Origin: Escherichia phage UPWr_E1
Sequence record: PP418985.1
DNA length: 64,000 nt
Direction: 5' to 3' (one strand)
The notes under the pieces are model-generated. The model saw only the letters and a program-made list of their open reading frames with translations, was not told where the DNA came from and ran no database searches. Below, piece after piece: positions 1,214-51,604 of this stretch. The translations under genes were made by a program, and so were the position numbers. Positions within the stretch are counted from its first letter, which is position 1, and each line of letters begins with the position of its first letter.

Positions 1214-1252
1214 ACACCCATCGAAACACGACACTTTCTAGGAGAATCAAAA

Positions 1253-1474
1253 ATGGCAACTGTTAAAATTATCAAATCTTCCGCTGGCTTCGGTTTCATG
1301 CGTGGCGCTAAGTACCCGATGATTATTGAAAACGTTGCCATCGAAGATGGTATGGCTAAAGTAACCAGCCGTCAATTGTTCGAAGCTGGTGTTAAAACTG
1401 CCGAATCATGGGCGCTTCGCTATCCTAACAAAACTTGGTCCTTCTTCCTGAATGGTGAGGCGGAGATCATTTAA
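1253..1474 (+). CDS. hypothetical protein (73 aa)
   Basis: ATG 1253 preceded by AGGAGAATCAA; promoter 1185-1213 upstream; track start 1199 (GTG) lies in the promoter. Confidence 0.6.
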   Translation: MATVKIIKSSAGFGFMRGAKYPMIIENVAIEDGMAKVTSRQLFEAGVKTAESWALRYPNKTWSFFLNGEAEII

Positions 1475-1477
1475 TTG

Positions 1478-1505
1478 TTGACACGGGGAGAGATCCCCGT
1501 ATAAT
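1478..1505 (+). promoter_or_regulatory. early promoter with spacer stem-loop (PeSL-like, type I)
   Basis: TTGACA 1478-1483; hairpin CGGGGA-gaga-TCCCCG 1484-1499; TATAAT 1500-1505. Confidence 0.75.
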
Positions 1506-1535
1506 GATAACCATACCAACTAAGGAGAATCAAAG

Positions 1536-1826
1536 ATGACCACTGAACAATTAATCAAGCATATCAGAAACATCATCTGGGATCTGTCTGGCGATAAAGA
1601 GGAACAAGCTGAACGCATTTTAGCTAAACTCTATAAACGCCGTGACTGTGGAGTATCAGTAAAGAAAGTAGAAACTTTCAAAGAATTGTCTTTCATCGAA
1701 GCTAAAAAGGATGGATTAATTTATCAGTTGACGGATGGTTACTGGTGCTATGATAATACTCGCTATGACACCGCGACTGATGCATTAAAAGCATGTAATG
1801 ACCATCTTCGCAAAACTACCGTTTGA
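1536..1826 (+). CDS. hypothetical protein (96 aa)
   Basis: ATG 1536 after AAGGAGAATCAAAG; stem-loop promoter 1478-1505. Confidence 0.6.
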   Translation: MTTEQLIKHIRNIIWDLSGDKEEQAERILAKLYKRRDCGVSVKKVETFKELSFIEAKKDGLIYQLTDGYWCYDNTRYDTATDALKACNDHLRKTTV

Positions 1827-1836
1827 GGATTATATT

Positions 1837-2034
1837 ATGAAGGTTAAAACATTGGCTGATATGGATGAGATCGAGACTCAAGTACACGCGGCGCTAGTCG
1901 GTTATGAGTTTGGTCGATTCCTTAATAAGTTCCATGATTATAAATGCTTAAATTGTGGTGCTCATAACGTAATTGGTGCTTGCTGTATTAATCCTGTTAT
2001 AGTACCATATAAAAGAAATGAAACAGAAGAGTGA
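1837..2034 (+). CDS. hypothetical small Cys-rich protein (65 aa)
   Basis: ATG 1837 after GAGGATTATATT; contains CLNCG...CC. Confidence 0.5.
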   Translation: MKVKTLADMDEIETQVHAALVGYEFGRFLNKFHDYKCLNCGAHNVIGACCINPVIVPYKRNETEE

Positions 2035-2044
2035 GGAATACAAA

Positions 2045-2479
2045 ATGAAAAAGTTGATGGCTACATTTCATGATATGCGAGATCTACCAGGTTTAGCACA
2101 TATCGATTTTCCTGTTACTATGGAAGTGTCGGAATATGACGGTTATCATGATATTCTGTTCATTAAAAATACTGAGTTTATCCGCTTAGGCGCTAAACCT
2201 GCTGTGCTGTACCCAGAAGGAAACCGGACAGCGGTCAGAAAAACAAATTCTGTTAAATTGGCATTTAGTTCAGATGTTGACTTGGAACCCGCTTTCGGAT
2301 ATACTCCGGTCGAGATCACGAAGTCAAATACATCTTTCGTGAAAGTAGGTGAGAAAACGCATATTTCAACCATGCAAGACGGTACACAATATCTATGGTC
2401 CGATTTCTGCCAGCGTTATGAGCGTTTATCATGGGCTACCCGCTTATGGTGCGTTGAGTATAAGGAGATCACAAAATGA
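2045..2479 (+). CDS. hypothetical protein (144 aa)
   Basis: ATG 2045 after GAGGAATACAAA. Confidence 0.55.
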   Translation: MKKLMATFHDMRDLPGLAHIDFPVTMEVSEYDGYHDILFIKNTEFIRLGAKPAVLYPEGNRTAVRKTNSVKLAFSSDVDLEPAFGYTPVEITKSNTSFVKVGEKTHISTMQDGTQYLWSDFCQRYERLSWATRLWCVEYKEITK

Positions 2480-2724
2480 TCACCGGATACATACCATATT
2501 CAACAACAAAACATATTGTCGGATTCGAAGACATAGAAAAGTCTTGCTTTCCTCTCAAGGTTGAAGTAGACTTTATTACAGAGAACGGATGGGCTTACGT
2601 TACTGTAGCAGAAATGAAGCGAGTAGGTTGGGAAAACTGCATACACCTACCGCATCTTATCCTAGATGTTCGTGCTGGTGAAATTGATATTGATGGAAAG
2701 ATCTATGGAGACAATGTAAAATGA
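2476..2724 (+). CDS. hypothetical protein (82 aa)
   Basis: ORF; ATGA overlap. Confidence 0.5.
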   Translation: MITGYIPYSTTKHIVGFEDIEKSCFPLKVEVDFITENGWAYVTVAEMKRVGWENCIHLPHLILDVRAGEIDIDGKIYGDNVK

Positions 2725-2975
2725 AAATTGAAATTTTCTACCGACGTTATTCATTCTTGGATAAAGTTAACCTTCCAATTATTGTTGAAGGTACACCATA
2801 TTATGAGGGCTTTTTGGTAACGACCGGAGAACTGCGAAAATCTGGAGTCCCCGTTGACCCTGAGTTTCATGATAATTATGAGTGGTGTTTCAGTGGCTTA
2901 TCTGCGAGTAGAGTAAAAGAAGCACGAAAAGCATCATGGTTTGCTCGCTTTAATAACTGGTTGAGGAAACTGTGA
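2721..2975 (+). CDS. hypothetical protein (84 aa)
   Basis: ORF; ATGA overlap. Confidence 0.5.
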   Translation: MKIEIFYRRYSFLDKVNLPIIVEGTPYYEGFLVTTGELRKSGVPVDPEFHDNYEWCFSGLSASRVKEARKASWFARFNNWLRKL

Positions 2976-3313
2976 TGAACGAAATGAAAATGTATATGAT
3001 CCTAAGTGATTCAGGATACACCTTCTTACAGGGTATTGATAGTGACTCGCGTCCTATTGTTTATGGCAAGGAACACCCGACCATCCCTGGGATCATTCTT
3101 GTTACGACAACATCACTTCGTCGAGTGTCGGAAAGTCCATACCTACAAAACGTAAAGCAAGACCGAGAATGGGCTTTCGAGTTAGGTAAAGATCTTGTTG
3201 AGTGGGTAAACTGTGAAGACAAGAACCAACGAAATCATGAAAGGAAGATTGCACGAATTGTACAGAGAAGAAAACTTGATGAAATCAAAAACAGGATTCT
3301 ACAATCAATGTAA
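2975..3313 (+). CDS. hypothetical protein (112 aa)
   Basis: ATG 2975 after GAGGAAA; overlaps upstream stop. Confidence 0.5.
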   Translation: MNEMKMYMILSDSGYTFLQGIDSDSRPIVYGKEHPTIPGIILVTTTSLRRVSESPYLQNVKQDREWAFELGKDLVEWVNCEDKNQRNHERKIARIVQRRKLDEIKNRILQSM

Positions 3314-3542
3314 CAGGGTATTCATTGTCCTGATGGATTCAGAAAACTATCCAGAACTCGCTAAAACGCGTTTCCCTTGCGTTGTTGAAGCATATAAGGT
3401 AAATGCACCGGATAAACAGTTTATCGTGTTAGCGAGCGAAATAGAGAGGTTAGGGGCGATTCCTAAACATGATGAATATATGTTTCGTAAGGTGTGCTCT
3501 GTACATCATTTTGATGTAGTAGTTAATTCACTAAAATCATAA
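3279..3542 (+). CDS. hypothetical protein (start uncertain)
   Basis: Track ORF 3213-3542 overlaps previous gene by 100 nt in another frame; downstream ATG chosen, no clear RBS. Confidence 0.3.
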   Translation: MKSKTGFYNQCNRVFIVLMDSENYPELAKTRFPCVVEAYKVNAPDKQFIVLASEIERLGAIPKHDEYMFRKVCSVHHFDVVVNSLKS

Positions 3543-3550
3543 AAAAGTTG

Positions 3551-3579
3551 TTGACAGGGGATCACGTATCCCCTATACT
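3551..3579 (+). promoter_or_regulatory. early promoter with spacer stem-loop (type I)
   Basis: TTGACA 3551-3556; GGGGAT-cacgt-ATCCCC 3557-3573; TATACT 3574-3579. Confidence 0.75.
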
Positions 3580-3621
3580 ACACACATCAAAACGAAACAC
3601 ACTTTCTTAAGGAGAATCAAA

Positions 3622-3900
3622 ATGAGCAACCTGTCTTTCGCTAAAGTAGAAATCACCAAAACTCGCGGTGGCTTTAAAATCAAAACTTCCAATATCACTT
3701 CCTGCCGTGGTTGCGTCCGGTTTGCGTTCGACTTAGCAGCGAAGCTGGGTATTAAAACCTTCACCGTTGAGAGCGGATCTAACTGGACCACTCTGATTGT
3801 TACTGCCGCTTGGATCAATGGCGAGTATGTAGAAAAAGCATACTTTGACATTTTCTATGACTACGAAGAAAAATGCTTTTATGCACTGCAAGACATGTAA
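3622..3900 (+). CDS. hypothetical protein (92 aa)
   Basis: ATG 3622 after AAGGAGAATCAAA; stem-loop promoter 3551-3579. Confidence 0.6.
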   Translation: MSNLSFAKVEITKTRGGFKIKTSNITSCRGCVRFAFDLAAKLGIKTFTVESGSNWTTLIVTAAWINGEYVEKAYFDIFYDYEEKCFYALQDM

Positions 3901-4229: not shown

Positions 4230-4266
4230 TTGACATGAAAATGCGGTTATCCTATAATAGCCGCAT
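4230..4266 (+). promoter_or_regulatory. early promoter with hairpin enclosing the -10
   Basis: TTGACA 4230-4235; TATAAT 4253-4258; inverted repeat ATGCGG 4241-4246 / CCGCAT 4261-4266. Confidence 0.65.
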
Positions 4267-4292
4267 CAAATGAACGATGTGAGGATTATATT

Positions 4293-4601
4293 ATGTTTAT
4301 CTCTTCTGCTACTCCAGTTAAAGTTTATGGCGAAACTGTGTATCTTCCGGCTGGCTATTGCTATGTTATCGTTGACCGTCACGGTGTAGTATATGCTTTT
4401 AAAGGTCGTCCGGTTGAAATTGATTCTGAATACGGTACATGGGGATATAAGGCCGCATACATGGATATTCCTGATTTTGGGGTACGCTTAGGAAGATTTG
4501 ATAATGATGTTAAACCATGCCTGATTAAGTATGCATCCTATGGTAAAACTGTTAAACCAAATAGCGTCGGTTGGATTGATGACGGCGTTAACGTGAAATA
4601 A
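4293..4601 (+). CDS. hypothetical protein (102 aa)
   Basis: ATG 4293 after GAGGATTATATT; promoter 4230-4266. Confidence 0.6.
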   Translation: MFISSATPVKVYGETVYLPAGYCYVIVDRHGVVYAFKGRPVEIDSEYGTWGYKAAYMDIPDFGVRLGRFDNDVKPCLIKYASYGKTVKPNSVGWIDDGVNVK

Positions 4602-5123: not shown

Positions 5124-5409
5124 TATAAAACATTCACCGACCGGAAAGGGGTCGGTGATCTTCAATGATGATAAACCGTTAATCTTAATTCGAAATGGTG
5201 ACTGGACATTACATGATACCCGTGTTACTATCCATTCACCGCCTAAAGAGATTCAACGGGAATTGGTTAGGATCGCCCTAACCGATAAGCATAAAGAGGC
5301 GGTAGGCTATTCTCTTTTGAAGTTGGGTGTTGACTTTCCTTTCGAGTATACGCTAACATTCAGAGAGCAGTCAGTGAAGCTAACAGAGATTCTATTCTCT
5401 GAGATATGA
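5116..5409 (+). CDS. hypothetical protein (97 aa)
   Basis: ATG 5116; a perfect 9-bp hairpin (5134-5158) lies inside the 5' coding region. Confidence 0.45.
   Translation: MINIKHSPTGKGSVIFNDDKPLILIRNGDWTLHDTRVTIHSPPKEIQRELVRIALTDKHKEAVGYSLLKLGVDFPFEYTLTFREQSVKLTEILFSEI
5134..5158 (+). other. perfect 9-bp stem hairpin inside a coding region
   Basis: TCACCGACC-ggaaagg-GGTCGGTGA; no T-run follows. Confidence 0.5.
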
Positions 5410-5419
5410 GGATTATATA

Positions 5420-5851
5420 ATGGTTTATCCAACTCCTAGTAAGATTTACATCGATGATACCCATTTTATGGTTGATATGATGGGTATCACTTTTAGCGGT
5501 AAGATTAATATTGTAGAATGGGAATTACACGGTCAACCTGTTACTGACTATGACCACTATATCCCTTTTTTGGGTGATGATAATTTTGTTTCGTTTGACC
5601 ATGAAGGTTACATGATCTTTGAACAGTCCGACGTGCCTTTGTATCTTGCAATGATGCAAATTCCTACGAAAGTTTCTGTTGCTGAGGGTGATTGCGATTG
5701 TTGCGGTTGGTATACTGTAACAGATATTAAGTTGCCATCCGGTAAAGAACTTTACAATGAAGACCATTTTGGAAACTGCAATTTTCCGTGTGATTGGGAA
5801 GAATTTTTCGAACTGGTAGAAATTGAAAGAACTTATTTGAGGAAGGGATAA
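5420..5851 (+). CDS. hypothetical Cys-rich protein (143 aa)
   Basis: ATG 5420 after GAGGATTATATA. Confidence 0.55.
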   Translation: MVYPTPSKIYIDDTHFMVDMMGITFSGKINIVEWELHGQPVTDYDHYIPFLGDDNFVSFDHEGYMIFEQSDVPLYLAMMQIPTKVSVAEGDCDCCGWYTVTDIKLPSGKELYNEDHFGNCNFPCDWEEFFELVEIERTYLRKG

Positions 5852-7454: not shown

Positions 7455-7489
7455 TTGACAATAAGAAATGGGAGTAGTAAAATACTCCC
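7455..7489 (+). promoter_or_regulatory. early promoter with -10 inside hairpin loop (type II)
   Basis: TTGACA 7455-7460; GGGAGTA 7470-7476 / TACTCCC 7483-7489; TAAAAT 7478-7483. Confidence 0.7.
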
Positions 7490-7514
7490 ATCTAATCAAG
7501 AAGGAGAATCAACA

Positions 7515-7787
7515 ATGCGTAAGATGTTTAAAGCTGGTGTTGCCTATGTTTTTAAATCTGAGCAAGCACGTAAAGACTTCTTAGAGGATGACTACGAAGG
7601 ATTGAAAGATACCTACGAAGCAATCAAGAATGGATTTACTGTTCTTAAAGTGTCACCCATTGGTTATGTAAGTGAAATCTCGGTTGACGGGAAAACATAT
7701 ACCGCTAAAGACTTTGATCCGCGTTGGGAATTTATGCTGCTTCCGTGTGACCGCATTCTGTTTCGTGCTGTTCAATTAGTGAAATGA
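7515..7787 (+). CDS. repeat-domain family protein (1 module, 91 aa)
   Basis: ATG 7515 after AAGGAGAATCAAC; stem-loop promoter 7455-7489; GFxVLKV...DG.TY module. Confidence 0.6.
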   Translation: MRKMFKAGVAYVFKSEQARKDFLEDDYEGLKDTYEAIKNGFTVLKVSPIGYVSEISVDGKTYTAKDFDPRWEFMLLPCDRILFRAVQLVK

Positions 7788-7801
7788 TAGAGGATTATAT
7801 T

Positions 7802-8362
7802 ATGGTACAGAAAACGTATAAATTGTATCCGGCTAAGTCTTCAAATGATACTGTTTTTGAACGAGGTCGTTATTACACTTTCCGTAATGCTGAGTCCGCA
7901 GAGGAATTTGTTAAACGCTATCCACAACATAACAAGTTCCTGTATGGTGTGCTTCACAAGGGCTTTAAAGTTCTGACGGTTAATGTTATGGGTAAAGTGT
8001 ATTTGGTAGAAACTCATGATTATGAGGGCGCGTCAATCATGATTGATGCAAGCGAGCGCAAATACTTTAAACGCATCACTAAAAAGCAGTTTGAAGAAAT
8101 GAAACCAGTTAAGAAAGAAGACTCTCTGGAAGATCTGATTAACTTGTTTGGTAAAGTTCGCTCTATCTCCTTTGCGATTGAAGATGACATTACCGACAAT
8201 AAAATCTTTATCAAGAACGCGGAAGACCTGAAAGAGTTCCTTATTGAAAATAGATCTCGGCTGGAAACCTTTCTTGAAAGTGAAATTATTCGACATGATA
8301 CCTACGCTAAATTCAGCGCCGAGAAAGTGGAAGAACTGAAAGAGATTAAAAAGTCACTTTAA
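7802..8362 (+). CDS. repeat-domain family protein (module + C-terminal helical LKEFL region)
   Basis: ATG 7802 after AGAGGATTATATT (alternative in-frame ATG 7784); GFKVL...ERKYFKRI motif. Confidence 0.55.
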   Translation: MVQKTYKLYPAKSSNDTVFERGRYYTFRNAESAEEFVKRYPQHNKFLYGVLHKGFKVLTVNVMGKVYLVETHDYEGASIMIDASERKYFKRITKKQFEEMKPVKKEDSLEDLINLFGKVRSISFAIEDDITDNKIFIKNAEDLKEFLIENRSRLETFLESEIIRHDTYAKFSAEKVEELKEIKKSL

Positions 8363-8365: not shown

Positions 8366-8400
8366 TTGACATGATGAAACGGGAGTAGTAAGATACTCCC
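8366..8400 (+). promoter_or_regulatory. early promoter with -10 inside hairpin loop (type II)
   Basis: TTGACA 8366-8371; GGGAGTA 8381-8387 / TACTCCC 8394-8400; TAAGAT 8389-8394. Confidence 0.7.
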
Positions 8401-8425
8401 ATCTAAACAACGAGAGGATTACATT

Positions 8426-9604
8426 ATGGCTAAATTCTTTGAAGGGCATTACTATGCATTCCGTGAAGGCGGTAAAGATGAGTTTCTAGATTTTTCTCGC
8501 TATTCAACTATTCTGACCGATGCTTCGCGCCGTGGTCATATTCGGGTTGCTGGAATCGTAGAAAAGGGCTTTAAAGTATTAGAAAAAGATGACCACGGTC
8601 ATGTTGTTACTATTGAAGCTGGTGATGTGGTTTATTCCGCTAAGGATATTGTGGATTATTGGGCTACTATGATCATGCACAATGAGCGCAAATACTTTAA
8701 ACGTATCTCAAAAGAGACATACGAAGCAATGAATAAGAAAGAGGATGTAATGCCGACCTACTTTGAAAAAGGTAAATGTTATTCATTCACTCCAGAAGGT
8801 TTGCAAGAATTTAAGCGATTCTGGGGAGAGCATGATCCAGAACACAAAGAAGCCATGAAACTTGTTGATTTTGTTGAGTATGGCTTTTTAGTTGAAGAAG
8901 AATTTCACGGATCAGCTACCATGATCACCGCGAAAGATGAAACCGTCAAGGCAGAACGTTTTTGTGACCAATGGAATTGCTTGTTTGATGGTAGCGAATT
9001 TGAATACTTCGCAGAGATCACCCGCGCTGAATATACCCGTATGCAAGAACGTGGTCAGAGATTTAAAGTAGGCGAACGCTACAAGCCAAATCCACATAAT
9101 TTGCCTCATTGGTTTAACACTGAAACCGTATCAAGTCATGTTATTGAAATTGTTCAAACGCTGGAACATGGATTTAAGGTAACTAAAGTAGATTCTTTCG
9201 GAAGTGTTGACGCGGTTGAAGTTGATGGTGTAGAATATACTCCTAAATCTTTTGGGCTTTGCTGGTATCACCTGATCAGCAATGATGAACGTTATTACTT
9301 TGTTGAACTGCCATCTGAACCGGAAGAAGCACTAGAAGATCATGATCATCTGTCTGAACTGGTTAAACTGTTTGGTGATCTGCCGGGTGGTGTAGGGGTG
9401 GCGGTAATGGGTGAAGGTGCTGTTATTCGCAACCTGAAAGACCTTAAAAAGTTCTTGTTCGACATGCTGCCTAAACTCGATGAGAATCTAGATACAGATA
9501 TTCAGAATCGCAAAGAAATTGTTAAAGAGACTGAAAAAGAGATCGAAGAGATTCGAGCAATTCGCCAGAAGGTGAAAGCAGTAAAGAAAAAAGTTAGTGC
9601 TTGA
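8426..9604 (+). CDS. repeat-domain family protein (3 modules + C-terminal helical region, 392 aa)
   Basis: Stem-loop promoter 8366-8400; internal repeats each ending ERKYFKRI / EFEYFAEI / ERYYFVEL. Confidence 0.65.
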   Translation: MAKFFEGHYYAFREGGKDEFLDFSRYSTILTDASRRGHIRVAGIVEKGFKVLEKDDHGHVVTIEAGDVVYSAKDIVDYWATMIMHNERKYFKRISKETYEAMNKKEDVMPTYFEKGKCYSFTPEGLQEFKRFWGEHDPEHKEAMKLVDFVEYGFLVEEEFHGSATMITAKDETVKAERFCDQWNCLFDGSEFEYFAEITRAEYTRMQERGQRFKVGERYKPNPHNLPHWFNTETVSSHVIEIVQTLEHGFKVTKVDSFGSVDAVEVDGVEYTPKSFGLCWYHLISNDERYYFVELPSEPEEALEDHDHLSELVKLFGDLPGGVGVAVMGEGAVIRNLKDLKKFLFDMLPKLDENLDTDIQNRKEIVKETEKEIEEIRAIRQKVKAVKKKVSA

Positions 9605-9634
9605 CATGCAAAGGGAGTATGCTATAATACTCCC
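9601..9634 (+). promoter_or_regulatory. early promoter with -10 inside hairpin loop (type II)
   Basis: TTGACA 9601-9606; GGGAGTAT 9613-9620 / ATACTCCC 9627-9634; TATAAT 9623-9628. Confidence 0.75.
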
Positions 9635-9658
9635 ACTTAACAACGAGAGGATTATATT

Positions 9659-10153
9659 ATGTGGGTACAAGATATTTGGTATACTGTAACTAAAGAAAAC
9701 CTTGACGCATTCAGCGACCAATCTTGCGCTAATAGCTCAATTGCTGGTATCCTTACTGATGTGTTTGGGGGTGTAGATAAAATTCGTTTTAAAGTTGTTG
9801 TTAGTTCGCTGGGTCAGGTGAAAGATCTTTACACCGACGATAAAGACCTTGATCTTAAACTTCGTCTTCGTATTGAAAATGCAAGTCTAGGTTATTGGTT
9901 TGAAGATAACGAATATGAATACTTCACACCAGCAATTAAAGTTTTTGCAACTAAACTGGAAGCTGTACTGAATCTTCGACCAATTAATGTTGACGGGTAC
10001 ATTATTAAAAATCTTCAGGAGTGGGATTCATATCTAGCTCAAGTTATCCGTAACAGCAAGCAGGAAGCCGCTAATAAGAAACGACAAGAGATCAAACAGC
10101 TTAAAGCTGAACTAGAAGCGGCAGAAAAAGAATTAGCAGAACTGGTAAAATAA
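9659..10153 (+). CDS. hypothetical protein with C-terminal coiled coil (164 aa)
   Basis: Stem-loop promoter 9601-9634; terminator 10163-10185 downstream. Confidence 0.6.
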   Translation: MWVQDIWYTVTKENLDAFSDQSCANSSIAGILTDVFGGVDKIRFKVVVSSLGQVKDLYTDDKDLDLKLRLRIENASLGYWFEDNEYEYFTPAIKVFATKLEAVLNLRPINVDGYIIKNLQEWDSYLAQVIRNSKQEAANKKRQEIKQLKAELEAAEKELAELVK

Positions 10154-12103: not shown

Positions 12104-12131
12104 TTGACAATCTTGTTAGCTCATGTATAAT
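12104..12131 (+). promoter_or_regulatory. sigma70-type early promoter (extended -10)
   Basis: TTGACA 12104-12109; TGTATAAT 12124-12131. Confidence 0.7.
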
Positions 12132-12163
12132 GCACATATCGAAAACAAAGAGAGGATAACATT

Positions 12164-12700
12164 ATGTTTTGTGTACTGAATAAAGAAATTAAAATTCGCA
12201 AGTTAGAAATTGGTGATGGTGTAGTTGTTAAAATGCACGCTAGCACACTGGCTAGCTTTGGTACAAAAGAAAGTTTCTTTATTATGGGAACTGTTGTTAA
12301 TATCTGCTGGAGTAAAGGCGAAGGCACACAAATCCGTAGTTTTTGTGTCGTTGACGAAGATAATAATCTGTATGTGATTCGCTATCAGAATCAATCTGTA
12401 TTGGTTTATACCGATAATTCACGAGAACTGTATACGCTGGACTTTGCTAAACTATGTGATTGTGATAAAAAGATTCAGGCGTACCACACAGAAGGCTGTT
12501 TTGGTGTTGGCGTCGAAGAGGAAGAGTACATCCCATTGGAAGTCGGGGCAGAAATTAAACATAGTGCCACGGATCGTATTTTTACGGTTGTTGCTGTTAA
12601 TGCAACTCAATTTGTAGCACAAGCACATAATACGGGATTCGTTATCTATGACATTGGTAATGCAAGTTCTCATTTTGAGGGCGTACAATTTCGTTTATAA
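12164..12700 (+). CDS. hypothetical protein (178 aa)
   Basis: Promoter 12104-12131; ATG 12164 after AGAGGATAACATT. Confidence 0.55.
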   Translation: MFCVLNKEIKIRKLEIGDGVVVKMHASTLASFGTKESFFIMGTVVNICWSKGEGTQIRSFCVVDEDNNLYVIRYQNQSVLVYTDNSRELYTLDFAKLCDCDKKIQAYHTEGCFGVGVEEEEYIPLEVGAEIKHSATDRIFTVVAVNATQFVAQAHNTGFVIYDIGNASSHFEGVQFRL

Positions 12701-13247: not shown

Positions 13248-13276
13248 TTGACGGGGATCGCGAGATCCCCTATACT
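13248..13276 (+). promoter_or_regulatory. early promoter with spacer stem-loop (type I)
   Basis: TTGACG 13248-13253; GGGGATC-gcga-GATCCCC 13253-13270; TATACT 13271-13276. Confidence 0.75.
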
Positions 13277-13318
13277 ATATTCATCAAGACGAGATACAAC
13301 TTTACAGGAGAATCAAAT

Positions 13319-13471
13319 ATGTGGACTTTACTGATTTGGGAAACTGAAAACGCACAAGTAGAAATCCGTGAATACGAATACCTAAGCCCAGCTTATCTAT
13401 TGGCATCTCGCGGTGGTTACTATAAAGCGCAGATTGTAAACGAGTTCGGGGTAATTGAATATGAGTTCTGA
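13319..13471 (+). CDS. hypothetical small protein (50 aa, not in ORF track)
   Basis: ATG 13319 after AGGAGAATCAAAT downstream of stem-loop promoter 13248-13276; overlaps nrdG start by 11 nt. Confidence 0.4.
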   Translation: MWTLLIWETENAQVEIREYEYLSPAYLLASRGGYYKAQIVNEFGVIEYEF

Positions 13472-14953: not shown

Positions 14954-14965
14954 GAGGATTATATT

Positions 14966-16697: not shown

Positions 16698-16718
16698 TTC
16701 TTGAGTGAGGAATATATT

Positions 16719-17006
16719 ATGTTAGTACACAATGCAATCGCACACATGGTTTACTCTCGATTTGGACGCATGGAAGAAATCAATATTACCGATGCAGATT
16801 TAGATCTGATGCAAGTCGAAGGCCAGACATATCTGAAAAATAACGGCGTGAATATCGGTAAAGCGCGTGTGCGTGAATTGTTGGTTGAATATATTCTCTC
16901 TGAATTTGGCATTAGTGCTTTCGGTGTGAAAGAGATTGCACCTAAGCGCGAAATTTCTGATAAAATGATCAAGAAATGCCAGAAAGCACGACGTAAGGGT
17001 TTCTAA
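16719..17006 (+). CDS. hypothetical protein (95 aa)
   Basis: ATG 16719 after GAGGAATATATT. Confidence 0.5.
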   Translation: MLVHNAIAHMVYSRFGRMEEINITDADLDLMQVEGQTYLKNNGVNIGKARVRELLVEYILSEFGISAFGVKEIAPKREISDKMIKKCQKARRKGF

Positions 17007-20671: not shown

Positions 20672-20700
20672 TTGACGCGGGGAGAAATCCCCGTTATACT
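20672..20700 (+). promoter_or_regulatory. early promoter with spacer stem-loop (type I)
   Basis: TTGACG 20672-20677; CGGGGA-gaaa-TCCCCG 20678-20693; TATACT 20695-20700. Confidence 0.75.
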
Positions 20701-30272: not shown

Positions 30273-30289
30273 AACGTGAGAAATATACT

Positions 30290-36528: not shown

Positions 36529-36555
36529 AAATTAGTTGACCCTACTCTATAATGG

Positions 36556-36600
36556 TTTTATTATGCCTCCCGTCGAAAGATTGGAGGCTTTTTTATTATG
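36556..36600 (+). repeat. 10-bp direct repeat TTTTATTATG flanking a 25-bp hairpin segment
   Basis: TTTTATTATG at 36556-36565 and 36591-36600; second copy supplies the ATG of ORF 36598. Confidence 0.6.
36565..36595 (+). terminator. hairpin plus T-run immediately before ORF 36598
   Basis: GCCTCC 36565-36570 / GGAGGC 36583-36588, then TTTTTT. Confidence 0.6.
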
Positions 36601-37104: not shown

Positions 37105-37133
37105 TTGACAGCACAAACCAGATAGACAATAAT
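37105..37133 (+). promoter_or_regulatory. sigma70-type early promoter
   Basis: TTGACA 37105-37110; AATAAT 37128-37133. Confidence 0.55.
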
Positions 37134-37162
37134 ACACACATACCAACTAAGGAGAATCAATT

Positions 37163-37918
37163 ATGAAACTGTTTGCTTTTAAATCTAACGAAGAATTGGC
37201 GCTGGTTGTTTTCCGTCTGAACTCTATCATGGCTGGCGCTTCTCGTCGTAACAAAGACTTCTCTATGAGCTTAGTCACTGTGCGTAACATCTATCGCCAG
37301 ACTCATTGCGCATATTCCGGTGAGGCTTTCGGTGAAGGTGATGACGGACTCTCCTTAGAGCGCATTGATTGCAATCTGGGATATGTTGATGGCAATGTAA
37401 TTCCGGTTAAACTGAAATACAATTCTTTCCGTGGTAATCATACTATCGAATCTCTTAAAGAGATCCAGGAACTAGGAACTAACGGTAAACTTTCTGATGA
37501 TGAAATTGCCCTACGTGCGAAGTACATCGAGTGGATCGAACTTAACGAGAATCGCATCAAAAATCAGGAAATGGCAATCGAAGAAAAGAAATTAGCAATC
37601 GAGCGCCACAAAAAGCACAACGAACCGGAGAAAGCAGATGCAGCCGAGCGAGCGATTAAAAATACTCTCTTCCGTATGGAAGAACGTTATCAGAAAATTG
37701 CAGATCTCAAGCAAGCCCTTAGCGAAATCAACAAGAAAGAGGAAAAACTTAAGGCTATTGCAAACAATACCGAAATCGTGCTAAAATATACCAGCGTTTT
37801 GATTGAATCTCTTTCTAAGTATGAGAACTTAACGCCAGCACAAAAAGAACGCGTGAAATACGGGCTTCCGATTGATGCGTCGTGGATTGAATTGATGAAA
37901 GCGAAGGTAGGTTTATAA
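37163..37918 (+). CDS. hypothetical protein in srd position (251 aa)
   Basis: Promoter 37105-37133; ATG 37163 after AAGGAGAATCAATT; C-terminal coiled coil; positional only. Confidence 0.55.
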   Translation: MKLFAFKSNEELALVVFRLNSIMAGASRRNKDFSMSLVTVRNIYRQTHCAYSGEAFGEGDDGLSLERIDCNLGYVDGNVIPVKLKYNSFRGNHTIESLKEIQELGTNGKLSDDEIALRAKYIEWIELNENRIKNQEMAIEEKKLAIERHKKHNEPEKADAAERAIKNTLFRMEERYQKIADLKQALSEINKKEEKLKAIANNTEIVLKYTSVLIESLSKYENLTPAQKERVKYGLPIDASWIELMKAKVGL

Positions 37919-38232: not shown

Positions 38233-39623
38233 TGAGCAGAGTATTAACTTTCGATATGTTGACAGACGGACAAAAACATGCTTTTGATGTTCTAATGAAA
38301 CGCATTGAACAAAAGAAGCATACCACTGTCCGGGGTGCGGCGGGTACTGGTAAAACCGCAATGATGAAATTCATTGTTCAGGAAATGGTCCGCCGTGGTG
38401 TAACTGGTGTGGTTTTGGCAACGCCTACCCACCAGGCTAAAAAAGTTTTGAGTAAGGCGGTAGGTCGTCAAGCATTTACTTTACATGCACTACTGCGACT
38501 AAACCCGACTAACTATGAAGATACTCAAGTATTTGAGCAAAAAGATACTCCTAAACTAGATGATGTTCAGATCATCATTGTTGATGAAGCGAGTATGGTC
38601 GATAAGAAACTATTTGATATTCTCATGAAGAGTATCAACGGTCGAATTGTTGTTATTGCAGTTGGCGATCCGCACCAGTTACGACCAGTTGATCCGAGTG
38701 GTGCAACGTCAATTTCTCCTTTCTTCACGGATGAAAATTTTCAAAACGTGGAGTTGACAGAAATTAAACGATCTAATGCACCGATCATTGATGTGGCGAC
38801 CGCTGTCCGTAACGGTAAATGGGTATTCGAAAAGCAGTGCGGTAACGAGGGTGTATTCCATAGCTCAACTCTGCCGGAGTTTATGAAGCATTATTTCGAA
38901 ACCGTTAAAACGCCGGAAGACCTTCTAGAAAACCGTATTCTGGCCTACACTAACAAGAGCGTCGAAAAACTAAATGAAATTGTACGTAAGCGCGTTTATA
39001 ACACCGATGAACCAGTGATTGTAGATGAAATTCTGGTTACTCAGGAACCGTTGATCGAATATATGCGAGATGAACGCGGGAAGAAGATTCCCAATGTTAT
39101 TTTTAACAATGGTGAGATGATCCGAGTTAAAGAGGTCATCCCGCGTGAATTTACATTACGTTGCACGGGGGTAGATCCGCAACCAGTTTTAGGCTATACT
39201 CTGAAAGTGGAAAGCGTCGATGATGACGAAGACAAAGAAATCCTAAATCAGAAAGTAGGTTTAGATGCAGTCGGAATCACTACAGATAAACCGGATTTAG
39301 TAGAAATCAACATTCTGACAGAACAACGTCAGAAGAACATTTTCTCTATCTATCTGAATACGGTCGCCGGACAATATCGCGAAATGAAGAAAGAGAATCC
39401 AAAATTTAAACCAGATTGGGATTCCTTCTGGACGATGAAGCGTATGTTCTTGAATGTAAAAGCATTACCAGCTTGCACCATTCATAAGTCACAAGGGATC
39501 AGCGTAGACCGCGTGTTCCTGTACACTCCTTGCATGTGTACAGACAATGTTGACTTTGAATTGGCAATGCAGTTATTATATGTTGGTGTTACCCGTGCGC
39601 GGTATCGAGTAGACTATATTTGA
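38232..39623 (+). CDS. dda: DNA helicase Dda (SF1B)
   Basis: Walker A GAAGTGKT, IIVDEASM; colinear with remembered T4 Dda incl. C-terminal LYVGVTRARYRVDYI. Confidence 0.92.
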   Translation: MSRVLTFDMLTDGQKHAFDVLMKRIEQKKHTTVRGAAGTGKTAMMKFIVQEMVRRGVTGVVLATPTHQAKKVLSKAVGRQAFTLHALLRLNPTNYEDTQVFEQKDTPKLDDVQIIIVDEASMVDKKLFDILMKSINGRIVVIAVGDPHQLRPVDPSGATSISPFFTDENFQNVELTEIKRSNAPIIDVATAVRNGKWVFEKQCGNEGVFHSSTLPEFMKHYFETVKTPEDLLENRILAYTNKSVEKLNEIVRKRVYNTDEPVIVDEILVTQEPLIEYMRDERGKKIPNVIFNNGEMIRVKEVIPREFTLRCTGVDPQPVLGYTLKVESVDDDEDKEILNQKVGLDAVGITTDKPDLVEINILTEQRQKNIFSIYLNTVAGQYREMKKENPKFKPDWDSFWTMKRMFLNVKALPACTIHKSQGISVDRVFLYTPCMCTDNVDFELAMQLLYVGVTRARYRVDYI

Positions 39624-39633
39624 GGAAATTATT

Positions 39634-39801
39634 ATGATTATGCGAAGTATCCCAGAATTTAATGATGTGACGGTAAGCCGTCACAATGGAACTGTTACCA
39701 TGTGCTTTAGATGGGGTCTGTACGGCTGGAACGTGTCCGGCGATAGTGAAGCTGCATGTATCAATAAAATGATCGAACATTTCACTAAGCGAGGTTTTTG
39801 A
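39634..39801 (+). CDS. hypothetical small protein (55 aa, not in ORF track)
   Basis: ATG 39634 after GAGGAAATTATT. Confidence 0.4.
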   Translation: MIMRSIPEFNDVTVSRHNGTVTMCFRWGLYGWNVSGDSEAACINKMIEHFTKRGF

Positions 39802-43185: not shown

Positions 43186-43220
43186 TTGACACTGGATCGG
43201 GGATATATCATAATGTCCCC
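43186..43220 (+). promoter_or_regulatory. early promoter with hairpin enclosing the -10
   Basis: TTGACA 43186-43191; CATAAT 43209-43214; stem GGGGA 43199-43203 / TCCCC 43216-43220. Confidence 0.65.
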
Positions 43221-43244
43221 ATCGAAAACAAAAGGTTGACTTAT

Positions 43245-43439
43245 ATGAAACCGTTTAAGAATGAAGAAACTCAAAAATTTTGTGAAAAAATTGCAGAAAT
43301 CTACTTGACAGGGGAGAAGGAAAAAGCTAATATTATGTTCAAAGAGGCAGTTTCCTTGATGAAAGTATCACGCTGGGAACTGATCGCAATGCAAGACCAA
43401 ATTCGTTATCTAGTAACAAAGGAGAATCAAAATGCGTAA
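43245..43439 (+). CDS. hypothetical protein (64 aa)
   Basis: Promoter 43186-43220; ATG 43245. Confidence 0.5.
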   Translation: MKPFKNEETQKFCEKIAEIYLTGEKEKANIMFKEAVSLMKVSRWELIAMQDQIRYLVTKENQNA

Positions 43440-43894: not shown

Positions 43895-43908
43895 GTGAGG
43901 ATTATATT

Positions 43909-46017
43909 ATGAAAATGCATATTGATAATGAAGAAGTATTTGGTAGTGACCTGAGCGGTGCGGTTGATTTTTCTCTGAAAGCAAGTAGCAAGGCTTTTAT
44001 GGTGCTTTCTAAGAACACGTATCAATATTGTGAGCGTGCTTGCGTCCGTGAGTATTCATGCAATGCTACAGACACTCACAAAGAAGCCGGAACCTTAGAT
44101 CGTCCGTTTGATATTCATTTACCGACTGCAATCGAACCGTATTTCTCTGTGCGTGATTATGGTACGGGTATTCCGTCTAAGAAAGAATTAGAACAACTGT
44201 TTACTGTTTACTTTGAATCAACCAAAGACCAGACTAATGATTATATCGGATCTTTTGGTTTAGGTGCGAAGTCTGCTTATAGCTATACTGACACCTTTAC
44301 AATCGTAAACTACTACAATGGTCGCGCTTATGGCTTTACTGCATTCGTGCAAAACTCTATGCCGAAAATGGTGCAGATTTTCGACGAACCGACCTATGAA
44401 GACAATGGTCTGAAAATCACTATTCCAGTGAAAGAGAAAGATATTCAGACATGGCATCGAGAAGCACAATTTGTACTGCGTCATTTTGGGGAACACAAAC
44501 CTAATATCAATGCCATCGAAATTAATTATTTCCCTAGCTTTGATAATTATTATGTGTGTAATGGACGTGATAACGATTCCTATGTGGTATATGCAATCAT
44601 GGGTAAGATCCAGTATCCGATCCCGTATGAATATGTTCGCGGAACATGGTTAGAAGCGGTAAACCGCCAGCACCAGACCATTTACATCAATTTCGAGTTA
44701 GGTGATCTGGACCTGATGCCATCGCGTGAAGAAGTTCACTTGTCAATTGAGACTAAAGCGAACATCGAAAAACGCATTGCAGAAATCAATGAAATGATGT
44801 TGGAAAAGGTTAAAGAAAAGATCGCCAGCATTGAAACAGAGCGTAAACTTGCGCAATTTATGAGCGAGTATTCATCGACTCAACGCAATATTATTAGCAA
44901 AATGGGTAAGATCGGACAGTGGGATGATCCGGTAGCAATCTATAATAAGTTTGTGAATGCGGGTAAAGATTCGCCAAATGACGTAGAAGGACAGGTGTAT
45001 ACTCTGTATCGCACTCGACACACAATCAGCAAATTGCGCCCTGCTTTCGTTAGCAGTCAATACAACATTACGCACTTTGTATGGATTCATAAAGAAGATA
45101 TTCTGTGTGTAATTGATGATACAGATAAACCGAAACTGCGTGCACTGACTCTTAACGGCATGGTCCAGGAATACGGCATCAATAAAAAGGTACTGGTGTT
45201 CCGTCAGAACAACGAAAAACATATGGAGACTTTCGAGTACATCAAACAGTATTATGATGAATCGGAAATGACCGTGATTAAAGTGTCCGAGGCCGACGAC
45301 CTGCGTGCTAAAGCAGTTAAGCCGGAGAAGACCGAGCGTACACAACGTGAAGCTACTCCTAAGCTACCTAACGTGTATATCATGGAAAAGATTGGTGACA
45401 GTTGGCATAAAACCAGCCATCACATGAAAGCGGCAGAGATTCGCGAGTTATCAGGCTTGCACATGTTCCGCGTGGGGGATGCATTCGAAAGCCGTATCCG
45501 TCAATCGATCTATAATGAAAATACATTACACACGGCGCTTGACTACTTCGGGGTAACAAAGTATATTATTACCCGTAATGAGACACAAAAATATCTCGTT
45601 GACGAACAACTGGAATGTGCGCTAGAATTTGTTCGCGGTAAGCTGGCGGGTCTGGCTAAGAAGGTTAAGACCAATCATCTGGGGTATGGCGAATATCTGG
45701 GTGTGATCACTATGTTGTTTCATGACGATGAACTAGAACGCTGTATTCCAGAATTTATTGACAGACTGTACGGTCGTCATTATAATAAAGAGGTTTCCAA
45801 GTTACTCCTTCGTACTCGTTGGATTATGGACGAAGAAACTAAAAAGATCTGTGATGAAAAATTCACGGCAGCAAACGAACGAATTAAAGCAGTTTGTGCG
45901 AAGTTTAAAGAGAATAGCCCGTTACTGTATGATATTGTAGATAACTGGTATCGTATTCTGCATAACGACAAACGCGCACAAGACTTTATGAAACTGGTTA
46001 AGAATGTTAAATTTTAA
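43909..46017 (+). CDS. rIIA: rIIA protein
   Basis: 702 aa (T4 rIIA about 725 aa); N-terminal ATPase-like region (DYGTGIP); position between 39 and rIIB. Confidence 0.75.
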   Translation: MKMHIDNEEVFGSDLSGAVDFSLKASSKAFMVLSKNTYQYCERACVREYSCNATDTHKEAGTLDRPFDIHLPTAIEPYFSVRDYGTGIPSKKELEQLFTVYFESTKDQTNDYIGSFGLGAKSAYSYTDTFTIVNYYNGRAYGFTAFVQNSMPKMVQIFDEPTYEDNGLKITIPVKEKDIQTWHREAQFVLRHFGEHKPNINAIEINYFPSFDNYYVCNGRDNDSYVVYAIMGKIQYPIPYEYVRGTWLEAVNRQHQTIYINFELGDLDLMPSREEVHLSIETKANIEKRIAEINEMMLEKVKEKIASIETERKLAQFMSEYSSTQRNIISKMGKIGQWDDPVAIYNKFVNAGKDSPNDVEGQVYTLYRTRHTISKLRPAFVSSQYNITHFVWIHKEDILCVIDDTDKPKLRALTLNGMVQEYGINKKVLVFRQNNEKHMETFEYIKQYYDESEMTVIKVSEADDLRAKAVKPEKTERTQREATPKLPNVYIMEKIGDSWHKTSHHMKAAEIRELSGLHMFRVGDAFESRIRQSIYNENTLHTALDYFGVTKYIITRNETQKYLVDEQLECALEFVRGKLAGLAKKVKTNHLGYGEYLGVITMLFHDDELERCIPEFIDRLYGRHYNKEVSKLLLRTRWIMDEETKKICDEKFTAANERIKAVCAKFKENSPLLYDIVDNWYRILHNDKRAQDFMKLVKNVKF

Positions 46018-50248: not shown

Positions 50249-50277
50249 TTGACTTCAAGAATCTAGCATTGCATAAT
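50249..50277 (+). promoter_or_regulatory. sigma70-type early promoter
   Basis: TTGACT 50249-50254; TGCATAAT 50270-50277. Confidence 0.65.
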
Positions 50278-50308
50278 ACACACAACTAAACAAAAAGGAG
50301 ACTCAAAA

Positions 50309-50515
50309 ATGAAAGTACGTTGCATTGAAACAGATCACATCAATTATAGCTTTAGTGTCGGGTGTGATTATGATGTTGATGTATTCACAGACAATAGCGG
50401 AAACACATTTGATGTAGTCCACGGCGACTATATTTGGTTTTACTTTGACAAACAACAACTTACTGCAACCAAACGAAACGGTGATCCGGTAGCAAAATTT
50501 GAAATAATCGAATAA
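50309..50515 (+). CDS. hypothetical protein (68 aa)
   Basis: Promoter 50249-50277; ATG 50309 after AAAGGAGACTCAAA. Confidence 0.55.
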   Translation: MKVRCIETDHINYSFSVGCDYDVDVFTDNSGNTFDVVHGDYIWFYFDKQQLTATKRNGDPVAKFEIIE

Positions 50516-50520: not shown

Positions 50521-50555
50521 ATTGACACCAGAACAAGGGAGTAGTAACATACTCC
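50521..50555 (+). promoter_or_regulatory. early promoter with -10 inside hairpin loop (type II)
   Basis: TTGACA 50521-50526; GGGAGTA 50536-50542 / TACTCCC 50549-50555; TAACAT 50544-50549. Confidence 0.7.
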
Positions 50556-50580
50556 CACACCAAACAAAAGGAGAATCAAA

Positions 50581-50854
50581 GATGAACAACGAAAACAGCA
50601 AGGTGTTAGCAATTGCCGATAAAGTAGGCTATTGGAAATGCTGGGATGATATGGAGAAATTAGGCGGTCGCTATCTCGATAACTTAGAGTTGCATTATTG
50701 CCAAGCGCGTAATGCGGAAGTCGCGGGAGTAGCAATTGAAGATATTCCGTCTAAGATCTTCGGATTCTCGAAAGATGATACTTTAGAATATGTTTTCAAG
50801 GCTGTTATGGATCAAGCATGGGAAGACGCAGAGACACGCGCTCTTGATTGGTGA
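50581..50854 (+). CDS. hypothetical protein (91 aa)
   Basis: Stem-loop promoter 50521-50555; ATG 50581 after AAGGAGAATCAAAG. Confidence 0.55.
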
Positions 50855-50858
50855 TAAT

Positions 50859-51032
50859 ATGAACTGGTATAAAATTTGGAAAAATCAGGTGGAGGCTTAT
50901 CTAGGGTATAAGCCCACCGACGAAGAATTACTTGAAGCAATGTACGAAGACGGCCTAAATCCGAAAGTAGCCGCGCAAGAATACGCGGAATGGGTGAAGG
51001 TCGAAGATAATTTAAAATTCCATAAAAATTAG
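50859..51032 (+). CDS. hypothetical protein (57 aa)
   Basis: ATG 50859 after GGTGATAAT. Confidence 0.45.
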   Translation: MNWYKIWKNQVEAYLGYKPTDEELLEAMYEDGLNPKVAAQEYAEWVKVEDNLKFHKN

Positions 51033-51067
51033 TTGACGCCAAAGGTCGTCGGTAGTAAGATACTCCC
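51033..51067 (+). promoter_or_regulatory. early promoter with degenerate type II hairpin
   Basis: TTGACG 51033-51038; TAAGAT 51056-51061; 3' arm TACTCCC 51061-51067 kept, 5' arm degenerate. Confidence 0.6.
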
Positions 51068-51094
51068 ATACCGAAACGAAAGAAGGAGAATCAC

Positions 51095-51307
51095 ATGAAA
51101 TCTATTGAGCAAGTAGTGACTGAATTTATGAGCTACGAAGGAAACCGCATCTTTGGACGTTCTCAAGTTCGCGAGATCGTAGAAGAAGTTGCGGGAGAGT
51201 TTGCGGAATCTGGTCACGTTATCACACAAGAACGTAAAGAAGAAGCAGTAAGCCAGATCATGGCTATTCAGAAAATGCGTATTAATGCACGAGCGGGTAA
51301 AAATTAA
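51095..51307 (+). CDS. hypothetical protein (70 aa)
   Basis: Promoter 51033-51067; ATG 51095 after AGGAGAATCAC. Confidence 0.55.
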   Translation: MKSIEQVVTEFMSYEGNRIFGRSQVREIVEEVAGEFAESGHVITQERKEEAVSQIMAIQKMRINARAGKN

Positions 51308-51317
51308 AAAATAGTTG

Positions 51318-51346
51318 TTGACAGGGGATCGCCGATCCCCTACAAT
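51318..51346 (+). promoter_or_regulatory. early promoter with spacer stem-loop (type I)
   Basis: TTGACA 51318-51323; GGGGATC-gcc-GATCCCC 51324-51340; TACAAT 51341-51346. Confidence 0.75.
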
Positions 51347-51377
51347 GAACTCATCAAGACAACGAAGGAGAATCAAA

Positions 51378-51533
51378 ATGAAACATACTCACAAATTAAT
51401 GGTTAAATTTGAAGGCGCTAAAGGATATGAACGTTATGGTGTATTCTTCTCTGAGGATGATGCGTGGGATGCTGGTCTGGCAACGTTCTCTGAGCACAAC
51501 AACATTGAAGACTTTACTGTAGAAGAAATTTAA
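51378..51533 (+). CDS. hypothetical protein (51 aa)
   Basis: Stem-loop promoter 51318-51346; ATG 51378 after AAGGAGAATCAAA. Confidence 0.5.
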   Translation: MKHTHKLMVKFEGAKGYERYGVFFSEDDAWDAGLATFSEHNNIEDFTVEEI

Positions 51534-51541
51534 AAAAGTAG

Positions 51542-51576
51542 TTGACACCGGATTAAGGGAGTAGTAAGATACTCCC
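51542..51576 (+). promoter_or_regulatory. early promoter with -10 inside hairpin loop (type II)
   Basis: TTGACA 51542-51547; GGGAGTA 51557-51563 / TACTCCC 51570-51576; TAAGAT 51565-51570. Confidence 0.7.
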
Positions 51577-51604
51577 ATCAAGACAAAACACTGAGGAATA
51601 TATT

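Follow-up and report, generated by a model that had tools for sequence, protein, structure and literature searches.

Two stereotyped translation-initiation regions recur before dozens of small, mostly unrelated genes in a 64,000-nt stretch of DNA from Escherichia phage UPWr_E1 (sequence record PP418985.1; the whole stretch is called the window here, and its first letter is position 1). Motif A, GGAGAATCAA followed by 1-5 nt and ATG, stands in front of 11 window genes. It is almost certainly the 3' module of the promoter-early stem-loops (PeSLs), the "mobile regulatory cassettes" of phages RB49 and phi1 described by Arbiol et al. in 2010 (PMC2839356) and also treated by Comeau et al. in 2014 (PMC4122927), and the published findings are reproduced here for the window. 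Motif B, GAGGATTATATTATG, is probably a selected initiation region and is not part of a promoter cassette. Motif A within PeSLs, together with motif B as a selected region outside the cassettes, is quite probably the best joint explanation of the two.

The window derives from an RB49-like T4-type coliphage of the genus Krischvirus, where it forms part of the half with the early genes, and is ~95% identical to its GenBank relatives. Over its first 20 kb, 58 GenBank phages match at 90-99% identity, all of them Krischvirus; the matches to the window include RB49, phi1, JSE, GEC-3S and ECD7. Its + strand is the early-gene strand of RB49. Genes were called with a script scoring codon usage and the Shine-Dalgarno (SD) sequence, giving 103 genes on the + strand and 9 on the - strand, and the called starts match the deposited annotation of GEC-3S, RB49 and kvi. 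Start regions were assigned to class A (GGAGA[AC]TCA, 1-5 nt, ATG; n = 11 genes), class B (GAGGA, 7 nt, ATG; n = 21) and class C (GAGGTGA, 2-7 nt, ATG; n = 9).

Both motifs occur far above chance. On the + strand, AGGAGAATCAA has nine exact copies (1240, 1523, 3610, 7502, 13306, 37150, 43420, 50569 and 51366) and one-mismatch copies at 50296 and 51084; these 11 copies compare with 1.7 from shuffles, and 0/100 shuffles reach 11. GAGGATTATATTATG has eight exact copies (1825, 4281, 7790, 9647, 14954, 31604, 43897 and 52674), and at <=2 mismatches on the + strand 15 copies are observed against 0.29 expected from shuffles. Every copy of either motif directly precedes a called gene start. The initial annotation had proposed two such motifs in front of dozens of unrelated genes; both are real, the coordinates it listed are all within 3 nt of the true ones, and "dozens" is fair for 32 genes (11 of class A and 21 of class B). 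The sites it listed are genuine, those at 51083 (motif A) and 5408 (motif B) being one-mismatch copies, but it missed the copies at 1523 and 50296 as well as the third stereotyped class, GAGGTGA. The downstream genes are indeed mostly unrelated. All-against-all blastp returned a single old paralogue family (30-35% amino acid identity), whose members differ in motif class, and paralogy was therefore ruled out as the origin of the common start regions.

Motif A and the PeSL cassettes

Motif A is linked to early promoters. A scan for TTGACA-N16-18-TATAAT-like promoters gave 64 matches on the + strand of the window versus 8 on the - strand. Twenty-one promoters (20 solid, one doubtful) lie in intergenic gaps, 26-47 nt upstream of starts, and motif A forms the 3' end of 10 of these 21 units. 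Class A genes are promoter-proximal in 10/11 cases, compared with 11/92 other genes (p = 1.5e-7). Across the whole RB49 genome, class A comprises 26 genes, all on the early strand and with a median length of 71 aa, and 25 of the 26 are promoter-proximal (p = 1.6e-17). GGAGAATCAA is nearly constant among these 26 RB49 copies, and the bases 5' of GGAG and 3' of the 10-mer vary. The sole window copy without its own promoter (43421..43434, + strand) precedes a 64-aa open reading frame (ORF), the second gene of the 43186 transcription unit. The median motif A ORF in the window is 73 aa, and a Pfam scan of eight such ORFs left six without a match, with one hit to DUF7170 and one below threshold. An exact motif A 11-mer also lies antisense inside late gene 11 of RB49 (28582-28592 of sequence L004, - strand), away from any called early gene.

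As published, a PeSL is a conserved ~100 bp composite of an AT-rich region, a sigma70 promoter, a stem-loop and an SD with ATG, and RB49 carries 51 of them, mostly in hyperplastic regions before ORFans (PMC2839356). The present scan finds the same number, 51, of promoter-proximal genes in RB49. There is no essential difference between the window units and the PeSLs of RB49 and phi1. They share the phage genus, the AT-rich region, the TTGACA-N16-17-TATAAT promoter, the 3' SD with ATG, and a G-run/C-run stem-loop between or over the promoter boxes. They also share a hyperplastic setting before small ORFans, with indels, chimeric junctions and crossovers between the -10 box and the SD or ATG. As the window units match PeSLs, the interpretation in the initial annotation, namely that promoter, leader and ribosome-binding site travel together in front of new genes, is that of the published PeSL model. 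Its correct part has already been published for this phage group, and novelty is low because the motif A cassette was described in this very group. The PeSL papers colour the SD, but give no account of the invariant GGAGAATCAA block or of two ribosome-site classes (PMC2839356, PMC4122927).

All ten units that were folded have 7-9 bp G/C stems (-10.1 to -13.9 kcal/mol, z -2.7 to -5.0). The -10 and the ATG are separated by one of two stereotyped distances (29-34 or 39-44 nt), and the leaders contain little G and much C and A (38% A, 29% C, 13% G). A GGGGATC...GATCCCC stem-loop is placed between -35 and -10 in units 1478, 3551, 13248, 20672 and 51318, and a GGGAGTAGTAAnATACTCCC stem-loop is placed over the -10 in units 7455, 8366, 9601, 50522, 51033 and 51542. 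The units cluster at 1-14 kb and 50-52 kb, before small ORFs.

The units that end in motif A are all on the + strand. PeSL 1185..1255 has a TTGACA -35, a CATAAT -10, a leader and GGAGAATCAAAAATG before a 73-aa ORF, and PeSL 1478..1538 has a GGGGAGAGATCCCC stem-loop between -35 and -10 and precedes a 96-aa ORF. These are followed by PeSLs 3551..3624 (GGGGATC..GATCCCC stem-loop, 92-aa ORF), 7455..7517 (GGGAGTAGTAAAATACTCCC stem-loop overlapping the -10, 90-aa ORF) and 13248..13321 (GGGGATCGCGAGATCCCC stem-loop, 50-aa DUF7170 ORF). The early promoter before srd (37105..37165; 251 aa) has the leader CATACCAACTA and ends in GGAGAATCAATTATG. The hyperplastic units are 50249..50311 (variant GGAGACTCAAAAATG, 68-aa ORF), 50522..50584 (stem-loop over the -10, 90-aa ORF), 51033..51097 (GGAGAATCACATG, 70-aa ORF) and 51318..51380 (GGGGATCGCCGATCCCC stem-loop, 51-aa ORF). 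Other ribosome sites follow the + strand PeSLs at 20672..20729 (stem-loop, GGAGGTTGTTATG) and 43186..43247 (64-aa ORF), and the + strand early promoters before gene 43, the DNA polymerase (27489..27552, AAGGAGTTTATATTATG), before a 62-aa ORF (30218..30292, hairpin downstream) and before modB (36536..36600).

Even for motif A, the parts of the cassette combine as modules and do not form a rigid unit. The stem-loop type that lies over the -10 is joined to motif A in units 7455, 50522 and 51033 and to motif B in units 8366, 9601 and 51542, and in relatives the promoter-leader combination of window unit 51033 stands before another SD and ORF.

A window PeSL spans about 60-75 bp. It combines an AT-rich stretch, a sigma70 promoter close to consensus, a G/C stem-loop of 7-9 bp and a CA-rich leader with few G, at whose end stand GGAGAATCAA, 1-5 nt and ATG. 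In the mechanism, which others have shown for RB49 and phi1, host RNA polymerase would fire the promoters when infection starts, and the stem-loop would shield each unit from read-through. Phage homologous recombination would swap, delete and insert the small ORFs lying between units, because the units resemble one another. In the published description, PeSLs act as linkers through which homologous recombination can insert, delete or swap ORFs; T4-type recombination uses short homology (<50 bp), and excised mini-circles, with crossovers between the -10 and the SD or ATG, were shown for RB49 and phi1 (PMC2839356). Promoter and terminator activity has been shown experimentally for RB49 and phi1 PeSLs only (PMC2839356). 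Like integron gene cassettes and lambdoid "morons", an analogy drawn in PMC2839356, the units are small accessory ORFs travelling with expression signals. Unlike those systems, PeSLs involve no integrase or attC sites, but general homologous recombination between similar regulatory linkers.

Breaks in synteny with relatives, which the initial annotation had offered as a check, coincide with cassettes in one respect. Gene-content differences, examined against 11 relatives, repeatedly end inside motif A PeSL units (1474|1512, 50312|50549 and in ECD7) and leave chimeric units, but blocks of divergent alleles are not motif-specific. Relative to RB49 and GEC-3S, the gp38 adhesin cassette is absent from the window at 1474|1512. 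The right junction of this indel falls within PeSL 1478, and in the comparison with RB49 the leader and motif A are common to both phages and the promoter core differs. An extra 68-aa ORF in the window, absent from RB49 and six other relatives, is flanked by two PeSLs (50312|50549). Here RB49 has a single chimeric PeSL, with the left half of one element and the right half of the other and the crossover between -10 and SD. Breakpoints recur at 50305-50313 (PeSL 50249) and at 50549 (PeSL 50522, between -10 and SD). The 49.4-54.9 kb region varies among eight further relatives as an array of PeSL + ORF units, in which endpoints recur. In ECD7, a deletion of three ORFs (50305|51083) has fused PeSL 50249 with the region where gene 51095 starts; the overlap at the junction is 11 nt long and lies inside motif A. 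The crossover of a deletion in LF73P4 and MIZ4 (51317-29|51526) falls within the AT-rich/-35 portion of the PeSLs.

Intergenic and initiation-region DNA makes up 11% of the 49.4-54.9 kb region and holds seven of its 15 distinct endpoints (p = 5.6e-4). Of the other eight, classed as lying in coding sequence, five are within 20 nt of a stop codon (51014-17, 51025, 51297, 51526 and 52649), and those at 51014-17, 51025 and 51526 are close to the AT-rich start of the next PeSL. Divergent-allele blocks relative to RB49 start 10-45 nt past the start codon, whichever class the gene belongs to; such mosaic blocks were rejected as evidence for either motif, as they reflect general gene-wise mosaicism.

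Several relatives carry an insertion at window position 51016 with two extra ORFs (L127 ~1620-2100, L130 ~1350-1860 and L132 ~1625-2135 in our numbering of these genomes). The first ORF is 66 aa and has a signal-peptide or lipoprotein-like N-terminus (MKKMIAIALLASAC...), and the second is 80 aa and lies behind a near-copy of the window's 51033 PeSL.

Motif B as an initiation region outside the cassettes

Class B shows no enrichment behind promoters (5/21 promoter-proximal, p = 0.76). The proposed cassette of promoter, leader and ribosome-binding site thus holds for motif A (10/11 promoter-proximal in the window, 25/26 in RB49), but not for motif B. The five promoter-linked copies, on the + strand, belong to units 4230, 8366, 9601, 12104 and 51542. 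The PeSL-type promoter at 4230..4295 is followed by exact motif B and a 102-aa ORF. Two PeSLs have the stem-loop type of 7455: 8366..8428, with GAGGATTACATTATG before a 392-aa frd.2-like gene, and 9601..9661, with exact motif B before a 164-aa ORF. An early promoter at 12104..12166 leads to the variant GAGGATAACATTATG and a 178-aa ORF, and the PeSL at 51542..51607, with its stem-loop over the -10, leads to the variant GAGGAATATATTATG and a 255-aa ORF.

The other 16 of the 21 copies have no promoter within 85 nt, and lie behind an unrelated upstream gene or a promoterless terminator. At gene junctions, the upstream stop codon is 10-23 nt away or the reading frames overlap, and in at least five copies the upstream stop overlaps the SD (TGAGGA, 10-nt gap). 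All the following are on the + strand. Exact motif B is found at 1825..1839 (upstream TGA overlapping the SD, gap 10 nt, no promoter), 7790..7804 (gap 14 nt, no promoter), 14954..14968 (gap 12 nt), 52674..52688 (gap 23 nt), before rIIA at 43897..43911 (gap 14 nt, no promoter), and at 31604..31618, where it follows a terminator hairpin with no promoter and precedes a gp40-like gene. One-mismatch junction copies lie at 5408..5422 (stop overlapping the SD, gap 10 nt) and 16707..16721 (gap 21 nt). Variants are found at 21254..21268, inside the end of the upstream gene (26-nt overlap), and with the stop overlapping the SD at 39622..39636 (GAGGAAATTATTATG) and 52876..52890 (GAGGATTACATCATG).

The identity within motif B exceeds a generic SD, as the initial annotation had claimed. 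The spacer TTATATT is found in 8/21 GAGGA-N7-ATG sites, where the positional frequencies of other genes predict 0.06, and at least eight identical spacers were reached in only 5/20000 column shuffles. Comparison of the flanks found no common sequence beyond the 15-mer. Orthologous sites keep the motif also where identity of the coding sequence is down to 86-88%. Exact motif B stands at 14954 in the window; RB49, GEC-3S and kvi have GGGGAATATATTATG there, with two point differences. In RB49, copies within one mismatch of the 15-mer precede 20/216 early-strand versus 0/46 late-strand genes (p = 0.03). This early-strand restriction argues for an early-phase-specific constraint, and against a simple "strongest ribosome-binding site". 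On balance, motif B is likely to be kept by selection on the RNA sequence itself. It is probably a lineage-preferred start region of the early strand, with a GAGG SD, fixed spacing and an AU-only spacer ending in ATT. It is used after promoters and, more often, 10-23 nt past an upstream stop, where it would support translational coupling.

A -10 box within motif B (TATATT, with TATAAT on the opposite strand) was considered and rejected: there is no fitting -35 or extended -10, and the start would fall inside the gene. Matches to the exact 15-mer in IMG/VR, among those listed, are single and scattered in unrelated contigs, and are uninformative on its distribution.

Class C, (T)GAGGTGA followed by 2-7 nt and ATG, is found in the window at 4616, 12713, 13975, 25551, 36010, 46029, 48258, 53265 and 54057. 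It is promoter-proximal in 0/9 cases in the window and 0/17 on the RB49 early strand, and the upstream gene's TGA stop often overlaps the start region.

Possible readers of the motifs and rival explanations

In T4, the nuclease RegB acting with ribosomal protein S1 cuts early mRNAs at GG^AG within an 11-nt single-stranded site, GGAGRAYARAA, and its sites lie in early-gene initiation regions, not in those of middle or late genes (PMC1702504, PMC3014915). The site begins with GGA and position 4 is G, rarely U, in the targets studied by Durand et al. 2006 (PMC1702504). The invariant 10-mer of motif A matches this consensus at 10/11 positions. GGAG is present in all 11 window copies, and the tail AAUCAAA agrees with RAYARAA at 6/7 positions, the exception being the C at position 8, where there is a strong preference for A. 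Of the 388 GGAG/GGAU sites on the window's + strand, seven reach 10/11 matches, and all seven are motif A sites. In RB49, GGAG serves as SD in 38/51 promoter-proximal early-strand genes, 34/165 internal early-strand genes and 9/46 late-strand genes, and AATCA[AC] follows in 25/38, 1/34 and 0/9 of these, respectively. Pairing with 16S rRNA cannot account for the conserved AATCAA. RB49 RegB is a full-length member of PF10715 (E = 1e-48), and regB is present in 58/58 relatives matching the window, each at >=90% identity. The regB SD in RB49 is GGAUAAUAAAA, and cleavage in vivo has been reported at regB's own SD site (PMC3014915). Motif A is also predicted to be unpaired with a mean probability of 0.62, versus 0.50 for other genes.

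Motif A resembles T4 RegB/S1 sites in having GGAG and an A-rich tail as the SD of early promoter-proximal genes, not late genes, in a lineage that encodes RegB and has such a site as regB's own SD. It differs in the C at position 8 (GGAGAAUCAAA compared with GGAGRAYARAA), and is far more uniform than the degenerate T4 set; by sequence comparison it is a candidate site. The 10-mer may be two signals in one, an SD and a target of phage RegB acting with S1, a possibility we hold tentatively and short of likely. S1 would then stimulate cutting of GGAGAAUCAAA, as of GGAGAAUAAAA, and a newly gained ORF would be translated at once and silenced minutes later. RB49-type phages are without MotA and without middle promoters (PMC1524935), and post-transcriptional shut-off of early genes would therefore matter more in them. 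As far as found, the RegB link of motif A is unpublished; neither PeSL paper mentions RegB or GGAG (PMC2839356, PMC4122927).

A wider version of this idea is more doubtful. Here PeSLs would carry a post-transcriptional timer, with GGAGAAUCAA as both SD and putative RegB/S1 site, so that an ORF caught between two cassettes would be on at time zero through host polymerase and off minutes later through a phage nuclease. The three start-region classes would make up a temporal code in a lineage without MotA/AsiA middle-mode transcription (PMC1524935), class A being cleavable and classes B and C resistant, with class B possibly read by RegA or another factor.

Several points weigh against the account given so far for the two motifs. 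Position 8 of motif A is C, where both T4 substrates and those from SELEX strongly prefer A, and T4 gene 1 RNA, whose positions 8 and 10 are both C, makes a poor RegB substrate (PMC1702504). The regB gene itself lies outside the window. The invariant 10-mer could reflect repeated homogenisation through PeSL-PeSL recombination, and RB49 PeSL sub-families with longer leader identity exist. For motif B, the bias between early and late strands is only modestly significant, and all gene classes favour A at -3 and T at -4, so part of its identity is generic. Finally, the start caller rewards an SD, although the called starts nonetheless match deposited annotations.

Motif B (GAGGAUUAUAUUAUGAAA) could be an operator of the phage translational repressor RegA, which targets some 30 early T4 mRNAs, but this is decidedly improbable. 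The regA gene lies in the window (27105..27467, + strand) and is a low-confidence candidate for a trans factor. Its product matches T4 RegA (1REG; E = 4e-48) and PF01818, and the RNA-binding residues K14, T18, R21, W81 and F106 are conserved. RegA operators of T4 and RB69 are AU-rich unstructured RNA between the SD and AUG of early genes (PMC3014915). Motif B is similar in being largely limited to early-strand genes and in its spacer UUAUAUU, an AU-rich RNA just 5' of AUG (a weak criterion), and it has AUUAUG in common with the T4 gene 44 and rIIB operators (PMC3014915). However, GAGGAUUAUAUUAUG has neither the 5' poly(A) tract of T4-type operators nor the UAA repeats of the RB69 type, and none of the window orthologues of classic T4 RegA targets (genes 44, 45, rIIB, dexA and regA) has motif B. 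RegA sites are also notoriously degenerate, and the resemblance is thus weak evidence.

The full model of the initial annotation, in which both motifs end one type of promoter-leader-ribosome-site cassette pasted before new genes, describes motif A correctly, and five motif B copies do follow PeSL promoters. It is nevertheless highly unlikely as a whole, given the 16/21 motif B copies with no promoter nearby, the single promoter/stem-loop type that bears either motif, and the single promoter and leader that bear different ribosome sites in relatives. It is rather unlikely that both motifs are simply the strongest E. coli ribosome-binding sequences, reached by convergent selection and read by no regulator. 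AU-rich spacers, like A at -3 and T at -4, are favoured in all gene classes, and the nine genes of the third class, GAGGTGA, are a further stereotyped set. The T7 gene 10 site, a strong one, likewise has a spacer in which A and U alternate. However, motif A is found in 0/46 late-strand genes, which include the most highly expressed, and none of the 46 RB49 late-strand genes comes within two mismatches of the motif B 15-mer. Motif A is moreover tied to the first gene past an early promoter (25/38 GGAG sites versus 1/34 internal ones), and the spacer positions co-vary beyond single-position preferences.

Identity by descent alone, with recombination or gene conversion among cassettes copying one sequence and no selection on the motif, seems improbable. 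Crossovers are seen within PeSLs and even within motif A, sub-families share longer leaders (for example CCACTTAGGAGAATCAAACAATG, twice in RB49), and T4-type recombination works on <50 bp of homology (PMC2839356). Against this, the invariant block is just 10 nt (motif A) or 15 nt (motif B), with variable sequence on both sides, and the junction copies of motif B have unrelated coding sequence immediately upstream. The exact consensus at 14954, two point differences away from three relatives, looks like point substitution and not like a conversion tract.

Neighbouring genes and implications

Window positions 1-46017 correspond to RB49 from its 47.7 kb position down to rIIA. Positions 46018-54625 contain rIIB, gene 52 and then the hyperplastic region, and 54661-64000 contain late tail-fibre genes on the opposite strand. 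No Rfam family match was found anywhere in the window.

An early-gene family with alike N-termini comprises genes 7515, 7802, 8426, 13975, 14468, 14966 and 15801 (window 7515-9604 and 13975-16283). Its members are 30-35% identical to one another, and three begin with MKWE. Genes 13975, 14468 and 15801 differ from their RB49 alleles by ~23% of nucleotides, in divergent blocks that start a few dozen nt past the start codon.

Replacement is also seen elsewhere. Window 52007-52370 is a 365-nt, same-length replacement of the 3' third of gene 51605-52372 (N-terminal LprI-like match); this allele is unique to the phage, and all nine relatives examined have another, common allele. A host-range module has been swapped at the distal tail-fibre gene 56582-59626 (- strand, 1014 aa), whose C-terminal domain is of the Peptidase_S74 intramolecular-chaperone type. 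It is followed by a tandem of three paralogous ~100-aa ORFs (55643-56543, - strand) with no Pfam match, and the block 55645-59499 resembles RB49 little or not at all. In RB49 (26380-26934), gene 47 has ORF040, a free-standing HNH endonuclease gene, placed exactly between its ribosome site and its ATG. ORF040 takes over that site and provides a replacement from its own 3' end; the window (19634-19649) lacks ORF040.

For annotation of this genus, motifs A and B are dependable markers of true start codons. The cassette interpretation of motif A describes how large lytic phages gain and shuffle accessory genes without wrecking their expression programme. The 2010 work already made this point, and the new isolate and ten more genomes used here do no more than confirm it again. 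If motif A is also a RegB target, horizontally acquired genes would inherit shut-off along with their promoter, and Krischvirus would offer ~25 near-identical natural substrates per genome for the selection of RegB targets by S1.

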